From: a virus
Taxonomy: Duplodnaviria; Heunggongvirae; Uroviricota; Caudoviricetes
DNA: 64,000 nt
Direction: 5' to 3' (one strand)
IMG/VR virus record: IMGVR_UViG_2648501839_000008
In this document: positions 3,645 to 55,682 of the stretch, piece by piece
How the letters are laid out: the number at the start of each line of letters is the position of its first letter
How positions within the stretch are numbered: the stretch's first letter is position 1
Position numbers and translations under genes: made by a program
Notes under the pieces: model-generated
Seen by the model: only the letters and a program-made list of their open reading frames with translations
What the model was told of the DNA's origin: nothing
Databases searched by the model: none

Positions 3645-3695
3645 TAGTATCAATCCTTTAATTCATATATTGGGCGTAACAAACGCCCAATATAA

Positions 3696-4055
3696 TCAAC
3701 CTTTCTTCATCAACTCTCGTTTAATTTCATCGGTACGCATCGTAACGTCGGCAGCTGTGATCGCCTCGTTAAGCTTCACGATGTCCTCGATTTCCTGCGG
3801 TGACTTCTCTGCCAGATGGAAAATGGCTGCTCGAATCACGTCAGAACGAGTGAACTTCTCGAAGCGAGGGATGAACTTCATCATCTCCAGCAGTTCGAAG
3901 TATTCGTCTTCCAGTGACATTGTGCGGCTTTTAATTTTCTCTTTGCCACGAGTCGGGCGTCCCTGTGGTCTGACTGGTTGGCGCAAAGGAGTTGTGTTCT
4001 TAGCCGGTGCATCAGGCTCTTTGCGCTTTGCTAGGTCACCCATTTTCATGGACAT
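3696..4055 (-). CDS. ParG-like ribbon-helix-helix partition protein
   Basis: 119 aa, basic disordered N-terminus plus C-terminal RHH-like segment; start overlaps parA stop (TAATG coupling). Confidence 0.45.
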   Translation of the reverse strand: MSMKMGDLAKRKEPDAPAKNTTPLRQPVRPQGRPTRGKEKIKSRTMSLEDEYFELLEMMKFIPRFEKFTRSDVIRAAIFHLAEKSPQEIEDIVKLNEAITAADVTMRTDEIKRELMKKG

Positions 4056-5652: not shown

Positions 5653-6020
5653 CTTAGAGCAGTACCATCAGCAGTTGTATTGCTGACAATGCTACCATGA
5701 GTATTAAGAAAGCGGCGAATTGCACTCTCAATAATTTCAGAGAATTGGTCACTAAACCGTGCTAATTCAGGGTATTGTTTTGCTGGCTTCACAATGAAAC
5801 GAACACGATCGTTCAGGAAAATCGCTTCAGCCAACGGTTTTACACTGGCACCAGCATTCTCAACATCGTCTTTGAAAGTTACGATGAAGCGAGTGTCTTT
5901 TGGCGCAGTCGCATCGTTGTTAAGTTTACGCACCTCAAGTTTGCGCTTATTCAGCACATGAGTTGCGATAACACTCGTGCAATCGCGAATTGTTTGTATA
6001 GAACGTTTTTCGTTCAGCAT
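5637..6020 (-). CDS. Hypothetical protein (127 aa)
   Basis: ORF track; ATG at 6018-6020. Confidence 0.4.
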   Translation of the reverse strand: MLNEKRSIQTIRDCTSVIATHVLNKRKLEVRKLNNDATAPKDTRFIVTFKDDVENAGASVKPLAEAIFLNDRVRFIVKPAKQYPELARFSDQFSEIIESAIRRFLNTHGSIVSNTTADGTALRWHLH

Positions 6021-13110: not shown

Positions 13111-16100
13111 TCACAGAAGGCCAATTCTTACTCGTAAGACGTTGTTATCGTCATAAACGTCAATCCGCTGACCATTTATAACCAATCGCCCATTGCCGCC
13201 GCTATTACCGTTGATCTCAAGCGTTCCATTTTTGCCGAACCGCCATCCAGATCTACCGCTAACAAAATTGGTAGATTGCAGATCGCCTACTTTTGCATTG
13301 GTGATTGTGCCATCCTTGATATACGCACCATTCATATAGGCGATACTGTTTTCGATAACAAATGGCGTGGTGATCTTCCCGTTAACAGAGTTGACCAAAC
13401 CAAATCTGTCCGCCTGCACCAAAAACTGAGAAAGACCGGTGGTGTCGATACCAAGCGCAATACCGGCAACATACTTCTGCCCTCCGCTCGTTGAAGTCTC
13501 CATTTTCAACGTCCACGCGGTTGAGACTTTTTTGTTGGTATCAGCAATGGCTGTTGCCTGCTGTTGAATTGTCGCGGTATTTCCATCCACCTCTGCTTTC
13601 AGAGTATCGATTCGCCCACTTAGAGCATTATCTGCCTGCGTTCTCGCTGTCGTTTCAGTTGTGACCGCCGCAGAAATGTTGGCTGCTGTTTGAGACTCTA
13701 AGTTTGTGATTTGAGTCGCCAATGCCGCATCTTGCTCTGTACGCGTTTTCGTTTCGGTTGCTACAGCCGCTTTAATATCCTCTTTGTATTGAGAGGTCAG
13801 CTTGGTGATCTGAGATGACAACGCCGAGTCAGCATCAGTTCGAGCCTGCGTTTCCACTGCAACGGCCGCACTAATATCTTTCGCAGTCTGTGCTTTTAAA
13901 CTTGAAACCTCTTTTGTTAAAGCGGTATCGCCATCTGCACGAGCCGTTGTTTCTTTGGCAAGAGACGCCTCGAGATCATTAGCTTTTGCTGTAAGAGATG
14001 TAATCTGGCTGGACAATGCACTATCGGCGTCAGTCCTTGCCTTTGTCTCTACAGCAACGGCTGCGACAATGTCAGTTCCGGTCTGCGCCCGCAGGCTGTT
14101 AATTTCTCGTGAGAGCGCCTCGTCAGCACTTGCTCTAGCCTCCTGCTCCTGAGTGATGGCGGCGGATATATCACCGTCAACCTTTGCTTGAAGCTGGTTT
14201 ATTTGTTTAGCTAACGCAGAGTCTCCGCTCGCACGCGCCTCCTGCTCACTGCGTATTGCAGCAGAAATATCATCATCAACTTTTGCCTGAAGTTGGGTGA
14301 TCTGGCTTGCCAGAGCCGAATCTTCCGTTGCTCGGGCTTCTTGCTCTTCCTTAATGGCTGCGACAATATCGTTGCTTACTTTCGACTCAAGCTGAGTTAT
14401 TTGTTTCGTCAAAGCTTCATCGGCAGATGTACGAGCCTCCTGTTCTGTACTAATCGCCGCGCTGATATCTCCTTCAAACTTAGATTGCAGCTGAGTGACA
14501 CGCTTTGCCAACGCTTCATCGCCATCGGCACGAGCGGTGGACTCTTCCAGAATACTGGCCTTAATGTCTTCGCCAATTTCTACGCGAATTTCCTCAACCT
14601 TCGTGGCCATTGCAGACATATCATCAGCAAAGGTTTTCTGTGTTGTTGCGATCTTCGCGTTATTGACCATCTGCTTGTGCTGGTCTTCATCTTGACGAAG
14701 AGCCAGGTCAATATTTGTTTTAGCTAACGCCTCAATGTTCGTAGTCAGTTCTGCACTGGCACGATCGACCTCTGCAACCGTCTTTTTCATTTCTTCAACG
14801 GCTGCGGAACTTTCCTCTACCGTCGACTGCAACACTTCCAGTTGTTTAGCGTTTGCGGCATCACCTTCAACACGAGCCTCGCTTTCCTTAGCAATAAGAG
14901 CCGCCGCTTCGTCTCTTGCAGCCTTTATTGCCTCGACTGTATTAGCGAGAGCTTTATCGTGTTCAGATACGGTGTTTTCGATTTCAACAATTGCAGCATC
15001 AGTAGCATCAATTTTTTCAAACGCTTCATTGACCTTGTCGATCGTTGCCGAAACCTCACCTTTAAGCTCGGTTTGTGCGTTCTCCAAAGCATCGCTACGC
15101 TCGTTGAATTTTATTTCAAAACCCGCGAGGTTATCGCTGAACTGCTTATCTAATTCAGCTATATCTTCCTTAACGTCGTTTACCGCCCCCTCCAAAGATT
15201 CGACGCTCTGGTTGATATGCTCATTTAACTCGTCAACTGCTTCTTGAGAGGCTTTGCTGTTGATGTCCTCAAGCAGAGCCTGACCAAGCTCGGAAGATGT
15301 AATTTTGCCAGCCAGGAACGACAGTACATCGCGAGTTGTCGCCTCTGTACCCAAGTTTGAGTTCGGAGGGCTTAACATACCTCGCTTGTTCGATGCTCGA
15401 ACCCAGTAATACCACGTTTCGCTATCCCCAAGACCAGCATGTGTAAAGGTGGTGCTTGCAGACTCTGCGATCAGTTTCGCCGTATCCAGATTGTTGGTCT
15501 GGGATGCGTAAACATTAATGTGATCAAGGTCTACCGAATCTGGATTAACCCAATTCAGTATCACATTACGATAGTCTCCAACGGCCGTTAATGACGTTGG
15601 TGCATCCGGCGGTGTCATTGTGCCCAGCACCTGATAAACGGTACTGATAATTTCTGTTTTTTTACCGTTGAATGAAACCGCATACAGTTGGAAGTCGTAG
15701 CGTCCATTCTCCGCGACATTAACGATTTCGTATTGCTCTTCGGTTACACGCGCCGATTGCCAGTTCGATACATTGTTTTCATCAGAACGTCGCCAACTGA
15801 TCCAATACTCTGGAGATTTCCCTTCCCATGTTGCAGTCAGTTTTACTGACAGGTTGCCCGGGCTTGAGAGGTAAGTCCCTTCAGTGATTTGCAAATTAGA
15901 CGGCTTGGAGTAAGTCGGGTCCAATACCGTCGTATTCTGCGGGATAAGCGTTGCACCATTGTCGATCGCCTCATATTTAGACGGATTGTTTTCAACAGCG
16001 GTGATGTCAAAGCTACCCGACGTTTCCCCCTGAGCGATGTTAACGATGCGAACGCGCATAGGTTCGAGATCTGGTTCTGTAATTGTCCAGACACCGTTCA

Positions 16101-49845: not shown

Positions 49846-51879
49846 TTACTTAACCTGGTGGCCAGGTTTAGCACCAGCATCCGGGCTTAACAGGAAGATA
49901 TCTTTCCCGCCGGGGCCAGCAGCCATCACCATACCTTCGGAGATGCCGAAGCGCATCTTACGCGGAGCCAGGTTAGCCACCATAATGGTGTGACGACCAA
50001 TCAGTGCCTGTGGGTCTGGATAAGCAGAACGGATGCCTGAGAAGACATTGCGTTTTTCACCGCCGAGATCCAGCGTCAGGCGCAGCAGTTTGTCAGAACC
50101 TTCAACAAACTCTGCGTTTTCGATCAGTGCCACGCGCAGGTCAACTTTGGCAAAGTCGTCAAAGGTGATGGTTTCCTGAATCGGGTCGTCTGCCAGCGGG
50201 CCAGTAACTGGCGCGGCAGTAGCTTTCACTTCTTCTTTAGACGCTTCCACCAATGCTTCCACCTGTTTCATGTCGATACGGTTATACAGTGCTTTGAACG
50301 GATTCACTTTATGGCCCAGCAGCGGTTGCTGGATGCCATCCCAGGTCAGTTCCGTATTCAGGAATGCTTCCGCACGTTCTGTCAGTTTCGGCAGTACCGG
50401 TTTCAGGTAAGTCATCAGCACGCGGAACAGGTTGATGCCCATTGAGCAAATCGCCTGCAGGTCAGCATCGCGACCTTCCTGTTTTGCGACTACCCAAGGA
50501 GCCTGCTCGTCGACATAGCGGTTAGCCAGGTCAGCCAGTGCCATGATTTCACGGATAGCTTTACCAAATTCGCGGCTTTCCCACGCTTCACCAATCACTT
50601 CAGCGGCATCAGTGAAGGTTTTGTACAACTGCGGGTCAGCCAGCTCGCTTGCCAGCACACCGTCAAAACGCTTATTGATAAAGCCAGCGTTACGGGACGC
50701 CAGGTTAACCACTTTGTTCACGATATCGGCATTCACACGCTGAACGAAATCCTCCAGGTTGAGATCGATATCATCAATGCGCGAAGAGAGTTTCGCAGTG
50801 TAGTAGTAACGCAGGCTGTCAGCGTCAAAATGATTCAACCAGGTGCTGGCTTTAATAAAGGTGCCGCGAGACTTGGACATCTTCGCGCCGTTCACCGTCA
50901 CATAGCCGTGAACAAACAGGTTGGTCGGCTTGCGGAAGTTGCTGCCTTCCAGCATGGCAGGCCAGAACAGGCTGTGGAAGTAAACGATATCTTTACCGAT
51001 GAAGTGGTACAGCTCGGCGGTGGAGTCTTTCTTCCAGTATTCATCGAAGCTGGTAGTGTCGCCGCGCTTGTCGCACAGATTCTTGAAGGAACCCATGTAG
51101 CCAATCGGTGCGTCCAGCCAGACGTAGAAATATTTACCCGGCGCGTTCGGAATTTCAAAACCGAAGTAAGGTGCGTCGCGGGAGATATCCCACTGTTGCA
51201 GACCAGATTCAAACCACTCCTGCATTTTGTTTGCCACCTGCTCCTGCAACGCACCGCTGCGGGTCCATGCCTGCAACATTTCGCTGAAAGAGGGCAGATC
51301 AAAGAAGAAGTGTTCAGAATCACGCATTACCGGGGTAGCACCAGAAACCACCGATTTCGGCTCGATCAGTTCAGTCGGGCTGTAGGTCGCGCCGCAAACT
51401 TCACAGTTATCGCCGTATTGATCTGGCGCTTTACATTTCGGGCAGGTGCCTTTCACAAAACGATCCGGCAGGAACATGCCTTTTTCCGGGTCGTACAACT
51501 GAGAGATAGTGCGATTTTTAATAAAACCGTTCTCTTTCAGGCGAGTATAGATAAGCTCAGACAACTGACGGTTCTCTTCGCTGTGCGTCGAGTGATAGTT
51601 GTCATAGCTGATGTTAAAGCCTGCGAAATCAGTCTGGTGTTCCTGACTCATTTCGCCAATCATCTGCTCCGGTGTGATACCAAGTTGCTGTGCTTTCAGC
51701 ATGATCGGCGTACCGTGGGCATCGTCGGCACAGATGAAATTAACCTCGTGGCCGCGCATTCGCTGGTAACGAACCCAGACATCAGCCTGGATGTGCTCCA
51801 GCATATGGCCGAGGTGGATTGAGCCGTTAGCGTACGGCAGCGCGCACGTCACCAGAATTTTCTTCGCGACTTGGGTCAT
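49846..51879 (-). CDS. metG: Methionyl-tRNA synthetase
   Basis: 677-aa translation from [26 protein letters not shown] (HIGH-type motif) through KMSKS to the C-terminal tRNA-binding domain; enterobacterial MetRS; true ATG at 51877-51879 (track ORF extended upstream). Confidence 0.95.
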
Positions 51880-52036
51880 AGTAGGCATTACTTCTTTGTA
51901 GTGAAAAGGGGCTTGATAGTAACAAAATGGCCTTATGTCTGCCATGTGATAACAGCATTTCTCATAAATGATTAAATGTCGCAGCTGGAGTACACTACAA
52001 GGCGACAATTGCGCAAATTAAAATAAAGGAGACGGG

Positions 52037-53137
52037 ATGAGCGAGTCCAAATCGCCGGATGCCCTGAGAGCAATGGTAGCCGGTACGCTGGCTAATTTTC
52101 AGCACCCAACCCTGAAACACAACCTGACTACGCTTAAAGCGTTACACCATGTTGCGTTGATGGATGACACACTGCATGTCGAACTAATCATGCCTTTCGT
52201 GTGGAATAAGCCTTTTGAAGACCTGAAAGAGCAATGTAGTGGTGATCTGCTCCGTATCACTGGCGCAAAGGCTATTGACTGGAAGCTGTCGTACAACATT
52301 GCCACGCTTAAGCGCGTCAAAAACCAACCAGGCATTAATGGTGTTAAGAATATTATCGCCGTAAGCTCAGGCAAGGGCGGTGTAGGCAAATCGTCCACAG
52401 CAGTAAACTTGGCACTGGCTTTGGCTGCTGAAGGTGCGAAAGTTGGTATTTTGGATGCCGATATCTATGGTCCATCAATTCCAACCATGCTGGGCGCGGA
52501 AAACCAACGTCCAACCTCACCTGACGGTACTCACATGGCACCTATCATGTCTCATGGCCTGGCAACCAACTCTATTGGTTATCTGGTCACCGACGACAAT
52601 GCAATGGTGTGGCGTGGACCGATGGCCAGCAAGGCGCTGATGCAGATGTTGCAGGAAACTCTATGGCCTGATCTGGACTATCTCGTTCTCGATATGCCGC
52701 CGGGCACTGGTGATATTCAGTTGACGCTGGCGCAGAACATTCCTGTAACTGGTGCGGTTGTGGTAACTACGCCGCAAGACATCGCGCTGATCGATGCGAA
52801 GAAAGGCATTGTGATGTTCGAAAAAGTCGAAGTGCCGGTACTAGGTATCGTCGAAAACATGAGTGTGCATATTTGCAGTAACTGCGGTCATCACGAGCCA
52901 ATTTTTGGCACCGGTGGCGCACAGAAACTGGCCGAGAAATACAACACGCAGTTGTTAGGCCAAATGCCACTTCATATCTCTCTTCGTGAAGATCTGGATA
53001 ACGGAACACCAACCGTTATTAGTCGTCCAGATAGCGAATTTACGGCTATTTATCGTGACCTCGCAGATCGCGTTGCTGCCCAAATGTATTGGCAAGGTGA
53101 AGTAATACCTGGCGAAATCGCATTCCGCGCAGTGTGA
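52037..53137 (+). CDS. apbC: Fe-S cluster carrier ATPase ApbC/Mrp
   Basis: Deviant Walker A SGKGGVGKSS, CxxC motif ...HICSNCGHH..., divergent from metG as in enterobacterial chromosomes; RBS AAGGAG. Confidence 0.9.
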   Translation: MSESKSPDALRAMVAGTLANFQHPTLKHNLTTLKALHHVALMDDTLHVELIMPFVWNKPFEDLKEQCSGDLLRITGAKAIDWKLSYNIATLKRVKNQPGINGVKNIIAVSSGKGGVGKSSTAVNLALALAAEGAKVGILDADIYGPSIPTMLGAENQRPTSPDGTHMAPIMSHGLATNSIGYLVTDDNAMVWRGPMASKALMQMLQETLWPDLDYLVLDMPPGTGDIQLTLAQNIPVTGAVVVTTPQDIALIDAKKGIVMFEKVEVPVLGIVENMSVHICSNCGHHEPIFGTGGAQKLAEKYNTQLLGQMPLHISLREDLDNGTPTVISRPDSEFTAIYRDLADRVAAQMYWQGEVIPGEIAFRAV

Positions 53138-53174
53138 TAAAAAGGTGGTGCAATGCACCACCTAAACAGTTCTC

Positions 53175-53564
53175 CTACATCACAGGACAATCATCAAACT
53201 CGCCACTTCTTGCGTCGTTGATAATGTGAGTGATCACACCAAACACGGCATTGCTGCCCGTGCATCCATCATCATCCTTTGGCAATGCTTCCTTCTTACC
53301 AGTTCTTAAATCCTCCAGATGCTGACGTGGATACTTCCGGTATCTTTTTACGCGATATTCCCCATCCAGAGCACATACAAGAAGAGATCCATCAACAGGA
53401 GTCAGTGAGGAATCGACCACCAGCAATGCACCCTGCAATATTCCCTCACGATGATGACTATCAGCCGCCCTCATGAAGTAGGTCGCTGAAGGATGTCTAA
53501 TTATCTGCTGATCAAGAGAAATACGGCTCTCAGCATAATCCGCCGCAGGAGAAGGGAAGCCCAT
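53175..53564 (-). CDS. UmuD-like (LexA/S24 peptidase family) protein
   Basis: C-terminal domain aligns with the UmuD/LexA catalytic core (Ser in ...AADSHH..., Lys in ...RVKRYRK...); SOS box immediately upstream. Confidence 0.65.
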   Translation of the reverse strand: MGFPSPAADYAESRISLDQQIIRHPSATYFMRAADSHHREGILQGALLVVDSSLTPVDGSLLVCALDGEYRVKRYRKYPRQHLEDLRTGKKEALPKDDDGCTGSNAVFGVITHIINDARSGEFDDCPVM

Positions 53565-53580
53565 AATACTCGCCTCTTAA

Positions 53581-53600
53581 TACTGTATATGCATACAGTA
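53581..53600. promoter_or_regulatory. LexA (SOS) box
   Basis: TACTGTATATGCATACAGTA = CTGT-N8-ACAG consensus, about 17 nt upstream of the UmuD-like start. Confidence 0.75.
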
Positions 53601-53894
53601 TATGTTGAAGCTATATATTTTTGAACTCTATCTCTTAAAAAAGATGTTAATAAGATGCTAACTATTGAAAGGCATAAATATATACAATTCCAACAAACGT
53701 TATTTTTAACAAATTTTTACTTCCCATTGACTTTCCCAGACTCCTTGTCTGAACTAATGTCCGCGGAAACCACTTTTTCCTTTACGAGTTATCCACAAAG
53801 TTATGCACTTGCACATAGTCTCTATAAATCCTATCTTAATTCGCAAGACACTGATGTTGCGGTATTGTGGGTACATTTGGTTAAAAACGGACAT

Positions 53895-53928
53895 TAAAAA
53901 AGCCCAGTTGACTAGGCTGGGCTTTTTA
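53895..53928. terminator. Bidirectional rho-independent terminator
   Basis: AAAAAAGCCCAG...CTGGGCTTTTT. Confidence 0.6.
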
Positions 53929-53959
53929 AAAGGAAACAGAGTTTGCGCCTCTGTTCCTG

Positions 53960-54157
53960 AGCCATAAGTATCTGGCGACTGAGCTAAGATTAACCGAATG
54001 TACTGGATTCATCAAGAAACGTTGAGCCGTCATGCTAGGTAATAATGACCATTTACCAAACATCGTTGTTCTCAAAGAAGATTTAAGTCCAGGTTTTTGG
54101 TGACTCTAAAACCTTACCTTAACTCGAAATCGTGCCGTAAGTATCTGGCGACTACAG
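53960..54157. repeat. Direct repeats (gtaagtatctggcgact x2; aaatcgtgccg x2) in a noncoding region
   Basis: Copies at 53965/54136 and 54126/54246. Confidence 0.5.
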
Positions 54158-54325
54158 ATATTGCAACTGCAAAGGCAAGCTCAAAGGTATTTGCAGCTAG
54201 GTGCGATAAAACTAAGTGAGGCCTATAGTGCTTAACTTACTTTTCAAAATCGTGCCGCCTATGTTCGCAATCATCGAAGCGATCATTGAGTACGTCAACC
54301 AGCGCCCATAATGCTAGTTGTTACC

Positions 54326-54350
54326 GGCCCCATCCAAATGGGGCCATTTT
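54326..54350 (+). terminator. Hairpin terminator
   Basis: GGCCCCATCCAAATGGGGCC followed by ATTTTATT. Confidence 0.5.
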
Positions 54351-54360
54351 ATTGTATTGA

Positions 54361-55032
54361 CTACATACTTTCTGATCTAATTGAGTTGTTCACTGCTCTG
54401 GCAATTTTCTCCCGCAATTGCTGCGTTCCGTGGTACTGAACCGCAATATCCCGCAACTCATTCACCAGTTCTCTAATCTGGTGATCTTTAAGCTCATTAT
54501 TTGGGTGATGGGCAACAACTCTGGTTAATTCACCCTTGTCTTTTGCTCTTACGTATGCAGCTCTTGTGCATTCGACCCATGTATTACCGCCTACATTAAC
54601 TTCGTAGATTAGGCTGGACTTATCTGTCAATTCGGAACAAATACGGGCCGTGGTCTGGCAACTAGAGCATTCGCAGTTATCGCGGAAACCGTGATCTACT
54701 GGCTTCGGTTTCACATCATCAACTTTTTCTACCCTATCGGAATTTAAATACTTCGAAGCCTTGCTATGCCAATCGCTGGTTTTAGGATCTTGTCCATCCA
54801 TCAAACGCCAGGCTTCAGCGATTAACTCATAACTAGTGACTGTAGCTTCCTGCGCATCACCAATAAGTCGTGTAATCTCTCTTTCAAGCCGACCGCCTAA
54901 CTCCGTTTTAGTGCAATGTTCTGACCAATCGCCAGCCTCAAGAAGCGCGAGAATGCTTAAAATATCGTCCAATAGAACGGTAGTATTATCGACTTCCTTC
55001 TGAAACTCACCGGCTACTGATTTATGCATCAT
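54361..55032 (-). CDS. Hypothetical protein (223 aa)
   Basis: ORF track; last gene of a coupled nine-gene operon. Confidence 0.4.
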   Translation of the reverse strand: MMHKSVAGEFQKEVDNTTVLLDDILSILALLEAGDWSEHCTKTELGGRLEREITRLIGDAQEATVTSYELIAEAWRLMDGQDPKTSDWHSKASKYLNSDRVEKVDDVKPKPVDHGFRDNCECSSCQTTARICSELTDKSSLIYEVNVGGNTWVECTRAAYVRAKDKGELTRVVAHHPNNELKDHQIRELVNELRDIAVQYHGTQQLREKIARAVNNSIRSESM

Positions 55033-55682
55033 TCGTCATCCTCATCCGAGTCATCCTCATCACAGGATGAGAGTAGTGGGTTAGTCATTCGCCCTACTTG
55101 AGTGGCGTAGCCACGCCGACAGAGATTGCGCAGCACACTGTATATTTCGAACATCTCGGTTCGTTCATCGCCAACATCAAGCTCAGATGCTATAGCGTGG
55201 CATTCAGTCGCGAGAGCCGATATTTTCTGAAATAACTCTGCATTATTCACTGTTCGACTCCTGCGGCGTTCTGGTAGTGGCATCCAGTGTGTGACATTGC
55301 TAATCAGACCATATTCATTAGTTTGAGGATGGTTGCCGTTATCGTCTCCGTATTTAAGACTCTCCATAAAGCCATAATGCCTATTACCATTAACGCTCAC
55401 AAAGCCGTAATAAGCAGGTATAACGCCGATCTCACACGTAACCAGTAAAGGAAAACTAGTTCTCCAATTTAGCTCGCCAATTACAGGCATTCGCTCACTA
55501 CAGCTTATCCAACCATCCTTAGATGCGGCTGTATTGGCATAGGCCTTACGGTGCTTCTGTAGCTCTGCTGCAATCGCTCTCACGACTTCAACTGGTGCCC
55601 TTGCAGCAAACTCAATGTTGGTGATCAGCTCATTAAGATATTTCTCGCTTGGGTAGCATTTCTTATTGTTAACGGTGGTCAT
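55029..55682 (-). CDS. Hypothetical prophage protein (DUF551-like WMPLPE motif, acidic C-terminal tail)
   Basis: ORF track; motif recognition only. Confidence 0.4.
   Translation of the reverse strand: MTTVNNKKCYPSEKYLNELITNIEFAARAPVEVVRAIAAELQKHRKAYANTAASKDGWISCSERMPVIGELNWRTSFPLLVTCEIGVIPAYYGFVSVNGNRHYGFMESLKYGDDNGNHPQTNEYGLISNVTHWMPLPERRRSRTVNNAELFQKISALATECHAIASELDVGDERTEMFEIYSVLRNLCRRGYATQVGRMTNPLLSSCDEDDSDEDDE

Follow-up and report, generated by a model that had tools for sequence, protein, structure and literature searches.

A candidate type I toxin–antitoxin module in an unannotated interval of an SSU5-group phage-plasmid

An unannotated interval beside humD

The DNA considered here is a stretch of 64,000 nucleotides (nt) from IMG/VR record IMGVR_UViG_2648501839_000008 (hereafter the window, at its full length), and our subject is the interval 53565–54360, in which the RefSeq (PGAP), GenBank phage and PLSDB records that we checked carry no annotation other than an 80-amino-acid (aa) open reading frame (ORF), labelled 'hypothetical' in one DDBJ record. 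We divide this interval into three parts: the promoter and LexA box of the UmuD-like gene humD, a copy of the Escherichia coli nrdA promoter, and a module resembling type I toxin–antitoxin (TA) systems (53896–54353), in which a small RNA (sRNA) is predicted to pair with the leader of a small-peptide mRNA. The module does not form one unit with the left half of the interval, which is a separate mosaic piece.

Over 53100–54450, the window is 100% identical to circular, non-mobilizable E. coli plasmids of ~110 kb and shares 93–95% identity with 'Escherichia phage Cyrano' and 'CMS-2020a', while the portal protein of Salmonella phage SSU5 matches its own at 93% identity. Because of these plasmid and phage identities and the SSU5-like portal, we assign the window to an SSU5-group phage-plasmid rather than to a chromosome with a prophage. 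The gene content of the phage-plasmid includes metG, apbC and humD.

The original prediction for this DNA had listed, between humD and position 54360, an 80-aa plus-strand ORF, a bidirectional terminator, a second hairpin terminator, two direct repeats and several short inverted repeats, and had suggested small RNAs or a transcript under SOS control. All of the listed items are present in the sequence; their interpretation is revised below. The features of the module are as follows.

53896–53927, both strands: bidirectional intrinsic terminator, with a GCCCAG/CTGGGC stem flanked by an A-run and a T-run
53896–53980, minus strand: predicted antitoxin sRNA of ~85 nt, from the consensus fold and pair counts in 19 distinct homologues
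53961–53980, minus strand: direct-repeat copy 1, the first 20 nt (seed) of the predicted sRNA, AGUCGCCAGAUACUUAUGGC, from pairing analysis
53987–54015, minus strand: putative sRNA promoter, from conserved hexamer blocks at fixed spacing
54090–54227, plus strand: predicted 5' untranslated region (UTR) of the peptide mRNA, start approximate, from alignments and consensus structure
54128–54207, plus strand: predicted long-range UTR helix, AAUCGUGCC (54128–54136, repeat-2 copy 1) with GGUGCGAU (54200–54207)
54134–54153, plus strand: direct-repeat copy 2, the predicted sRNA binding site in the 5' UTR, with 20 contiguous pairs
54140–54162, plus strand: target hairpin, with stem AGUAUCUG/CAGAUAUU, predicted in 9/9 sequence variants
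54218–54311, plus strand: Shine–Dalgarno sequence (GAGG, 54218–54221) and 27-aa ORF (GTG at 54228, stop at 54309–54311)
54244–54257, plus strand: repeat-2 copy 2 inside the ORF (codons F-K-I-V-P), predicted alternative partner of 54200–54207
54326–54353, plus strand: intrinsic terminator of the peptide mRNA, GGCCCCAU-CCAA-AUGGGGCC followed by AUUUUAUU

A direct repeat predicted to pair as RNA

Repeat 1 (TAAGTATCTGGCGACT) is an exact match of 16 nt between 53965–53980 and 54138–54153, its copies 173 bp apart, and extends to 20 nt with one A/G mismatch (53961–53980 and 54134–54153). Both copies had been noted before and both exist, at this corrected length: the exact match does not reach 17 nt, since copy 1 reads aTAAG where copy 2 reads gTAAG. 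Exact repeats of at least 15 nt appeared in 0/1000 dinucleotide shuffles, the largest being 14 nt. Repeat 2 (AAATCGTGCCG) stands, as originally listed, as an exact 11-nt match at 54127–54137 and 54247–54257 (14 nt with one mismatch); exact repeats of at least 11 nt arose in 87/1000 shuffles, so that repeat 2 alone is within chance, and its meaning comes from comparative structure, discussed below, and not from its length.

Read on opposite strands, the copies of repeat 1 make the 5' end of the predicted sRNA complementary to 54134–54153 over 20 contiguous pairs, one of them G·U, at a site 75–94 nt upstream of the start codon. We therefore read the 'direct repeat' on DNA as sRNA–target complementarity. 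It falls in the range of ~18–30 nt and lies in the 5' UTR off the ribosome binding site (RBS) and the ORF, the duplex lying 75 nt or more before the start codon, GTG at 54228. In a set of 12 distinct sRNA/target combinations, pairing covers 97.2% of cells, and compensatory double changes occur at 10/24 sRNA–target pairs (0/500 shuffles; slid controls reach at most 36%). The seeds form five classes (...UAAGUAUCUGGCGACU in the window, ...AAUGUAUCUGGCGACU, ...UUGUUAACCGGCGAC, ...UAAAACACUGGCGAC and ...AAUGUAUCUGGCUACA).

The target hairpin exposes a loop, GCGACUA (54148–54154), able to pair with the 5' end of the sRNA. Its stems are wholly different in two relatives (GUUAAC/GUUAAC in L008 and CACUG/CAGUG in L010; L numbers are our handles for individual sequences), and its 3' arm changes with the seed class, a three-way covariation of sRNA, target and target stem. 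The same three elements change together across ~20 diverged relatives from at least six genera. RNAduplex energies computed across classes make the cognate pair the most stable in 4/5 rows, the window's among them, and the L005 sRNA beats the window sRNA on the window UTR; the absolute values are inflated by long bulged duplexes, and we do not use them as evidence of specificity.

These observations bear on whether the repeats act as DNA, either as iteron-like sites for replication, partition or regulatory proteins or as att-like recombination remnants or targets, both of which the original prediction had entertained in some form. Two direct repeats 173 bp apart in a noncoding stretch would suit such a role, as would the Kosakonia element lying ~1.1 kb from repA, and concerted evolution is expected of protein-binding sites too. 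Against this, the repeat has two copies only: at up to two mismatches, no third copy of repeat 1 was found in the 64-kb window, ~47 kb of remaining replicon lying outside the search, and the check for a partner att site at the opposite end of the element found none within the same limits. The window and most relatives lack an adjacent rep or par gene. The predicted +1 of a conserved promoter coincides exactly with copy 1, which is followed by structured helices and a terminator, and a third, inverted segment that makes an RNA hairpin with copy 2 varies in step with it. In addition, the differences between copies at positions 2–20 are all A/G or C/T changes toward G·U, never A·C, a pattern predicted by an RNA duplex and not by a DNA-binding site. 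On these grounds iteron, partition, att and recombination sites were all rejected as candidates, and we regard a DNA-level role for the repeats as extremely improbable.

The predicted minus-strand sRNA

The earlier suggestion of small RNAs survives in that the region is predicted to encode one; the best-supported sRNA, running from 53980 to ~53896, is on the minus strand. Its putative promoter combines a −35 element TTGATG (54015–54010), a 17-nt spacer and a −10 element TAATCT (53992–53987), with an A at 53980, 7 nt downstream. The blocks TTGA(A/T)G and TAA(G/T)CT are kept at the fixed 17-nt spacing in 19 homologues (TTGTAG in L008) while the spacer drifts; a simple consensus scan, for which this promoter is too weak, did not detect it. 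From its 5' end, the sRNA comprises a tail (AGUC), a first stem-loop, SL1 (53976–53961), a second, SL2 (53958–53931), and the terminator (53927–53897), the predicted fold being a short 5' hairpin, a 10-bp middle hairpin and the terminator, with a single-sequence energy of −32.9 kcal/mol.

In the alignment of 19 sequences, 95.7% of cells are paired, compared with 89.2% in column shuffles (0/500), both-sided changes number 35 where 12.8 are expected, and register-shifted controls reach at most 62% of cells paired. Three helices carry compensatory changes and pass both the shuffle and the slid controls. The bidirectional terminator, correctly recognized in the original prediction, has its stem at 53902–53922 around a loop at 53908–53916, six A at 53896–53901 and five T at 53923–53927; a terminator scan reports its minus-strand side, which we take as the predicted 3' end of the sRNA. 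In relatives, this terminator shows compensatory changes at pairs 62–82 (AU 12, GC 7) and 66–78 (GC 14, AU 4), with 100% of cells paired. Computationally, the locus has the form of a separate, divergent sRNA gene with its own promoter and terminator.

A 14-nt inverted repeat, GTACATTTGGTTAA/TTAACCGAATGTAC (13/14 complementary), brackets the sRNA gene at 53871–53884 and 53990–54003. Its right arm overlaps the sRNA −10 element; it is 12/14 in Cyrano and absent in distant relatives, and is probably due to chance or recent.

The predicted peptide mRNA and its 27-aa ORF

On the plus strand, conservation of the leader begins abruptly at GGTTTTTGGTGA (54092). A weak −10-like block, AAGATT (54078–54083; A2 and T6 conserved), is not claimed as a promoter: it comes without a −35 element and overlaps a small hairpin in some relatives. 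The ORF starts 6 nt after GAGG and encodes a hydrophobic peptide, MLNLLFKIVPPMFAIIEAIIEYVNQRP, with a grand average of hydropathy (GRAVY) of 0.86 and a best 19-residue hydropathy window of 1.85. It is intact in 26/26 distinct sequences selected by the UTR alone, and its variable columns are distributed over codon positions as 7/3/15 in the window ORF class and 9/3/17 in a paralogous class, ORF1. This third-position bias contrasts with the 10/14/14 of the 80-aa ORF compared with Cyrano. The locus holds, in other words, a hydrophobic peptide gene of under 60 aa with the signature of protein-level selection.

Many relatives (L005, L006, L008, L019, L039–L052) carry tandem paralogous peptide ORFs behind one leader, the first of which has ATA for ATG in L039, L043 and L048. 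The single-ORF form of the window looks like a deletion that fused the ORF1 leader to ORF2.

The second hairpin terminator of the original prediction is present at 54326–54345, followed by ATTTTATT, and works as a terminator in the plus-strand direction only; relatives have a hairpin and T-run at the same position with different stem sequences. It would indeed end a plus-strand transcript within a minus-strand block, as had been proposed, the transcript in question being the predicted peptide mRNA and not an sRNA.

Within the leader, an RNAalifold consensus of 15 homologues predicts a long-range helix of 7 pairs, nearly always kept, that encloses the target hairpin and an invariant hairpin, CUGCAAA...UUUGCAG (54167–54196). 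In the minimum-energy fold of the full-length window mRNA, 54200–54207 pairs instead with 54248–54256, and the hairpin that results encloses both the start codon and the Shine–Dalgarno sequence. Folding predicts this alternative helix in 8/15 homologues, with one compensatory change (L039 versus L040). It is plausible, on these predicted folds, that repeat 2 reflects two alternative partners of 54200–54207, an arrangement that would not be universal.

Searches against known families

A covariance-model scan of the kind originally proposed found no Rfam family at gathering threshold in the window, and a tRNA/tmRNA scan of the whole window found nothing. In a permissive search (E up to 10), the window yielded RNAI only, at 24 bits against a threshold of 47 and with a weak three-hairpin resemblance, whereas the relative L005 yielded OrzO-P (RF02083) at 34.2 against 60, RNAI at 27.8 against 47 and AgrB at 15 against 40. 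RNAI scores across scans span 24–32 bits against 47, and we rejected the sub-threshold RNAI and OrzO-P resemblances as driven largely by terminators. The gathering scores of OrzO-P, istR, AgrB, sok and RNAI were not reached. For the peptide, three family members were searched against Pfam and NCBIfam at E up to 10 with no match, and an exact look-up of the 27-aa sequence returned only an unnamed 'uncharacterized' entry. A hidden Markov model (HMM) of the family gave 4.6 bits on LdrD, a score reached by 2/500 shuffles; as one of seven tests, this result is marginal, and we take it as no more than a lead. Searching the literature for the peptide strings, for the seed and for type I TA systems of SSU5 or of phage-plasmids brought up nothing of relevance.

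Proposed mode of action and its weighing

From this anatomy we infer the transcripts, the direction of regulation, the part of RNase III, the toxicity and a biological role, in maintaining the plasmid or prophage or in excluding phages, along the following lines. A constitutive-looking promoter (TTGATG-17-TAATCT) would drive the 85-nt minus-strand sRNA, and the plus strand would give, from ~54090, an mRNA of ~260 nt that encodes the 27-aa hydrophobic peptide and ends at the terminator at 54326–54345. With the first 20 nt of the sRNA complementary to 54134–54153 in the leader, first contact would be made between the extreme 5' end of the sRNA, AGUCGCC, and the target hairpin loop, GGCGACU; pairing would then spread through the stem into the base of the long-range UTR helix, and the duplex of 20–24 bp would block translation, lead to RNase III cleavage, or both. 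Once the sRNA is gone, for instance after plasmid loss, translation of the longer-lived mRNA would set in, and the membrane peptide made from it would arrest growth. Of the two alternative partners that repeat 2 would offer to 54200–54207, one would bury the RBS.

That an antisense sRNA pairs with the leader of a small-peptide mRNA is, in our judgement, very likely. The broader statement, that 53896–54353 is a type I TA module of the divergent, 5'-UTR-targeting class, is probably correct. Several points weigh against it. The case is computational throughout. A consensus sigma-70 promoter for the peptide mRNA was not found in scans of the window, L009 and L005, and the 5' end of this mRNA is placed from the onset of conservation. 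The start codon is GTG in the window (ATG in relatives), TisB and ZorO are both more hydrophobic than the peptide, which has Pro-Pro in the middle of its helix, and the repeat-2 alternative helix is confined to the 8 relatives noted above. The concerted change of the repeats could in principle stem from gene conversion, and the G·U asymmetry comes from few independent events. Finally, the peptides match no toxin family in Pfam, NCBIfam, PHROGs or PADLOC, and the family HMM scores TisB, DinQ, ZorO, ShoB, Ibs and Hok within shuffles.

The last points lead to an alternative in which the sRNA–mRNA pairing holds and the peptide is no toxin, being instead a small phage membrane protein tuned by the sRNA and serving, for instance, in superinfection exclusion, in the timing of lysis or in modulating a host membrane protein. 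The RNA evidence is silent on toxicity, and such a peptide would fit the lack of a toxin family match, the moderate hydrophobicity, the Pro-Pro motif and the position of the module among early 'moron-like' genes of temperate phages. It fits less well with the full type I TA architecture (divergent sRNA, 5'-UTR target, sequestered RBS, a peptide of under 30 aa and, in some relatives, tandem paralogous ORFs), with the presence of the module on low-copy plasmids, where addiction modules are common, or with the movement of a compact two-gene cassette between unrelated replicons. We consider a non-toxin peptide unlikely, and retain the toxin–antitoxin interpretation.

Distribution of the module

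A distant-mode search recovered 53888–54224 at 67–77% identity in plasmids of Enterobacter, Kosakonia, Citrobacter and Klebsiella, in gaps that carry no annotation and lie in unrelated gene neighbourhoods. The first alignment of relatives already showed compensatory changes in the hairpins, the conservation of repeat 1 in its two copies, and a small ORF that has a Shine–Dalgarno sequence and is followed by a terminator. The invariant UTR hairpin, used as a search pattern, retrieved 29 IMG/VR contigs and one Kluyvera contig, and a pattern back-translated from the C-terminus of the peptide added 14 contigs (43 IMG/VR contigs in all). Among complete E. coli genomes, 115/5426 (~2%) carry the module, on 106 plasmids and 10 chromosomes, unannotated in all. 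Its genera include at least Escherichia, Shigella, Citrobacter, Enterobacter, Klebsiella, Kosakonia and Kluyvera, and its carriers are SSU5-group phage-plasmids, other plasmids and IMG/VR viral contigs.

The IMG/VR contig L010, which has a class-4 module, ends beside the SraC/RyeA and SdsR/RyeB locus (13350–13494; 159 and 112 bits), which suggests a prophage integrated there. In L008, a Klebsiella IncFIB plasmid, a sok-like match of 50 bits (threshold 59) at 94–233 lies ~2.3 kb from the class-3 module, at the start of an annotated IS3 transposase gene, and two RNA-antitoxin cassettes may be near each other.

Type I TA loci escape standard annotation and few families are known in enterobacteria; the candidate family would be mobile, fairly common and unannotated throughout. 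Should it be an addiction or exclusion module, it would help to account for the stability with which clinical lineages carry these 'cryptic' phage-plasmids. The five natural seed/target classes, with their three-way covarying hairpin, offer a ready system for studying antisense specificity, and for the module to be recognized by annotation pipelines, its peptide and its RNA would each have to be modelled.

The left part of the interval and neighbouring genes

Three features occupy the DNA to the left of the module.

53581–53625, minus strand: predicted promoter and operator of humD (UmuD-like), from a promoter scan and the annotated homologous site of P1/P7
53655–53897, plus strand: 80-aa ORF, probably not a gene, overlying nrdA-promoter-like DNA
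53745–53840, plus strand: copy of the E. coli nrdA promoter region, 91.5–92% identity over 47–49 nt

The LexA box TACTGTATATGCATACAGTA, a 20-nt palindrome at 53581–53600, overlaps the minus-strand −10 element TATACT (53602–53597) of humD, the −35 element being TTCAAA (53625–53620); the counterpart site in P1 and P7 is annotated as the LexA binding site of humD. This box bears on the proposal, part of the original prediction, that a divergent transcript under SOS (LexA) control leaves the humD operator, crosses the region and is ended by the plus-strand terminators. The box is strong, its P1 counterpart is annotated as also serving a divergent gene, lxr, and tisB and dinQ, members of the same TA class, are SOS genes (PMC3567139). 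Nevertheless, lxr has no homologue here, the humD operator is the only LexA-type box (CTG-N10-CAG) in 53500–54400, none lying within 500 nt of the predicted start of the peptide mRNA, the bidirectional terminator stands between box and module, and relatives of the module occur in contexts without humD. With no LexA box nearby, SOS control of the module was rejected, and a transcript of this kind would be a great surprise.

The 80-aa ORF is in the ORF list at the originally noted position, and its coding signature is absent. Compared with phage Cyrano, its differences fall 10/14/14 by codon position, with 19 nonsynonymous and 5 synonymous codons; compared with P7 they fall 10/7/8, with 16 nonsynonymous and 4 synonymous codons. 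These counts give no sign of protein-level selection, and PGAP leaves the ORF out. We rejected it as a gene on these statistics, despite its sole match (phrog_28987, function unknown) and a homologous frame that stays open in P7.

Between 53565 and 53813, the window is 82% identical to P7 and P1-like plasmids, and the core of this similarity is the nrdA copy, which, in the nrdA orientation, matches the ypaB–nrdA intergenic region of every one of 5426 complete E. coli genomes. It contains DnaA boxes TTATCCACA (53789–53797) and TTATGCACT (53801–53809), a −35 element TTGCAC (53809–53814), a 17-nt spacer and a −10 element TATCTT (53832–53837). By sequence identity this is the nrdA-type arrangement of two DnaA boxes immediately upstream of and overlapping the −35, followed by a −10 at 17-nt spacing, and both boxes and both hexamers align in register with the E. 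coli nrdAB promoter (~92% over 47–49 nt). It differs from that promoter in having no nrd gene behind it and in reaching the bidirectional terminator after ~60 nt. The same element is present in P1 and P7, the P1 record noting 'two predicted DnaA boxes'; near-exact copies without an nrd gene occur in SSU5-group phage-plasmids, P1 and P7 (L003 ~2560–2660, L004 ~3660–3760). The copy faces rightwards into the bidirectional terminator and, if active as a promoter, as its sequence suggests, would yield a plus-strand RNA of ~80 nt (~53844–53927), which would account for the plus-strand face of that terminator. Titration of DnaA and cell-cycle-timed transcription are possible reasons for carrying it.

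The position of this element invites a more speculative idea, that the module is wired to replication status as a replication-sensing kill switch or an abortive-infection switch. In the window, the promoter copy with its DnaA boxes points at the antitoxin gene and shares the bidirectional terminator with it, and convergent DnaA-dependent transcription or read-through could lower the antitoxin when initiation or dNTP supply is disturbed; the five seed classes would then act as an 'incompatibility code', letting phages and plasmids carry copies that do not cross-react. We hold such wiring to be improbable.

In non-SSU5 relatives, a conserved motif, CTAyATrTAGTryTTATCCACAG, made up of a palindrome and a perfect DnaA box TTATCCACA, lies ~30–40 nt beyond the sRNA terminator (L009 ~5780–5815, L040/L042/L052, L044, L021), so that a DnaA box beside the antitoxin 3' end recurs across contexts.

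Further left, full-length metG (methionyl-tRNA synthetase) and apbC (mrp) are divergent at 49846–53137, and chromosomal matches to the query that includes the end of apbC have 80–90% DNA identity. Both are copies of housekeeping genes on a mobile element. The plasmid pAVS0225-A (NZ_CP124493) matches the window exactly at least over 53100–54450. Its PGAP record (L001 7930–8421) gives a short ORF and a DUF551 pseudogene beside a 223-aa gene; where it has these two, the window has one intact 217-aa ORF (55029–55682), and the records are inconsistent.

Comparison with known systems

In the divergent class of type I systems, the antitoxin is complementary to a long 5' UTR without overlapping the translation start, and the families described with this layout, tisB–istR-1, zor–orz, dinQ–agrB and shoB–ohsC, are all chromosomal E. 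coli loci (PMC4147584). The architecture of the module fits this class. The closest match to the module among known systems is zorO–orzO/zorP–orzP of E. coli O157:H7, which likewise has a divergent sRNA whose 5'-end stretch (18 nt in OrzO, 20 nt here) pairs in a long 5' UTR away from the RBS, a variable sub-region that sets specificity between paralogues, and a peptide of under 30 aa (29 in ZorO, 27 here) (PMC3919570). The sRNA of one relative also gives a weak OrzO-P match (34.2 bits, E = 0.00045 in a 221-nt search). This score remains below the gathering score of 60 and aligns mainly the terminator, the window sRNA has no OrzO-P match, and the OrzO model lacks the middle helix of the sRNA here. 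The HMM/shuffle test shows no relationship between the peptide and ZorO, and the module is carried by phages and plasmids, whereas zor–orz is chromosomal.

In tisB–istR-1 and dinQ–agrB, which are also divergent, the site in the 5' UTR that the antitoxin can pair with lies far upstream of a structurally sequestered RBS (PMC4147584). As in these systems, the full-length mRNA here is predicted to be translationally inert, and the tandem ORFs of some relatives are reminiscent of tisA/tisB. They differ from the module in the LexA box, for which the window peptide gene has no counterpart, and neither an IstR or AgrB Rfam match above noise (AgrB 15 bits) nor a TisB or DinQ family match was found.

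In the par locus (fst/RNA II) of Enterococcus pAD1, complementarity arises from direct DNA repeats read in opposite directions, and the terminator is bidirectional. Within the membrane helix of Fst and Ldr toxins there is a conserved proline, and their C-terminus is charged, features echoed here by the mid-helix PP and charged tail of the peptide, and LdrD shares a (D/N)(Y/W)(I/L)NKR-like end with the ORF2 paralogues. The par RNAs, however, are convergent with a shared terminator, whereas those predicted here are divergent with separate terminators; Rdl is a cis-antisense RNA, and Pfam gave no Ldr or Fst match here.

With hok/sok and the phd–doc system of P1, the module would share its likely role, post-segregational killing on a low-copy plasmid or prophage, and, as with hok, the peptide mRNA is predicted to fold with its RBS closed. 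Between Sok and its target, by contrast, there is overlap in cis, hok depends on the mok frame, and the window has no sok Rfam match; phd–doc is a protein–protein (type II) system, which flanks humD in P1, while the module lies on the other side of humD. The module belongs to no named family, and we regard it as a new one within a type of system already known.

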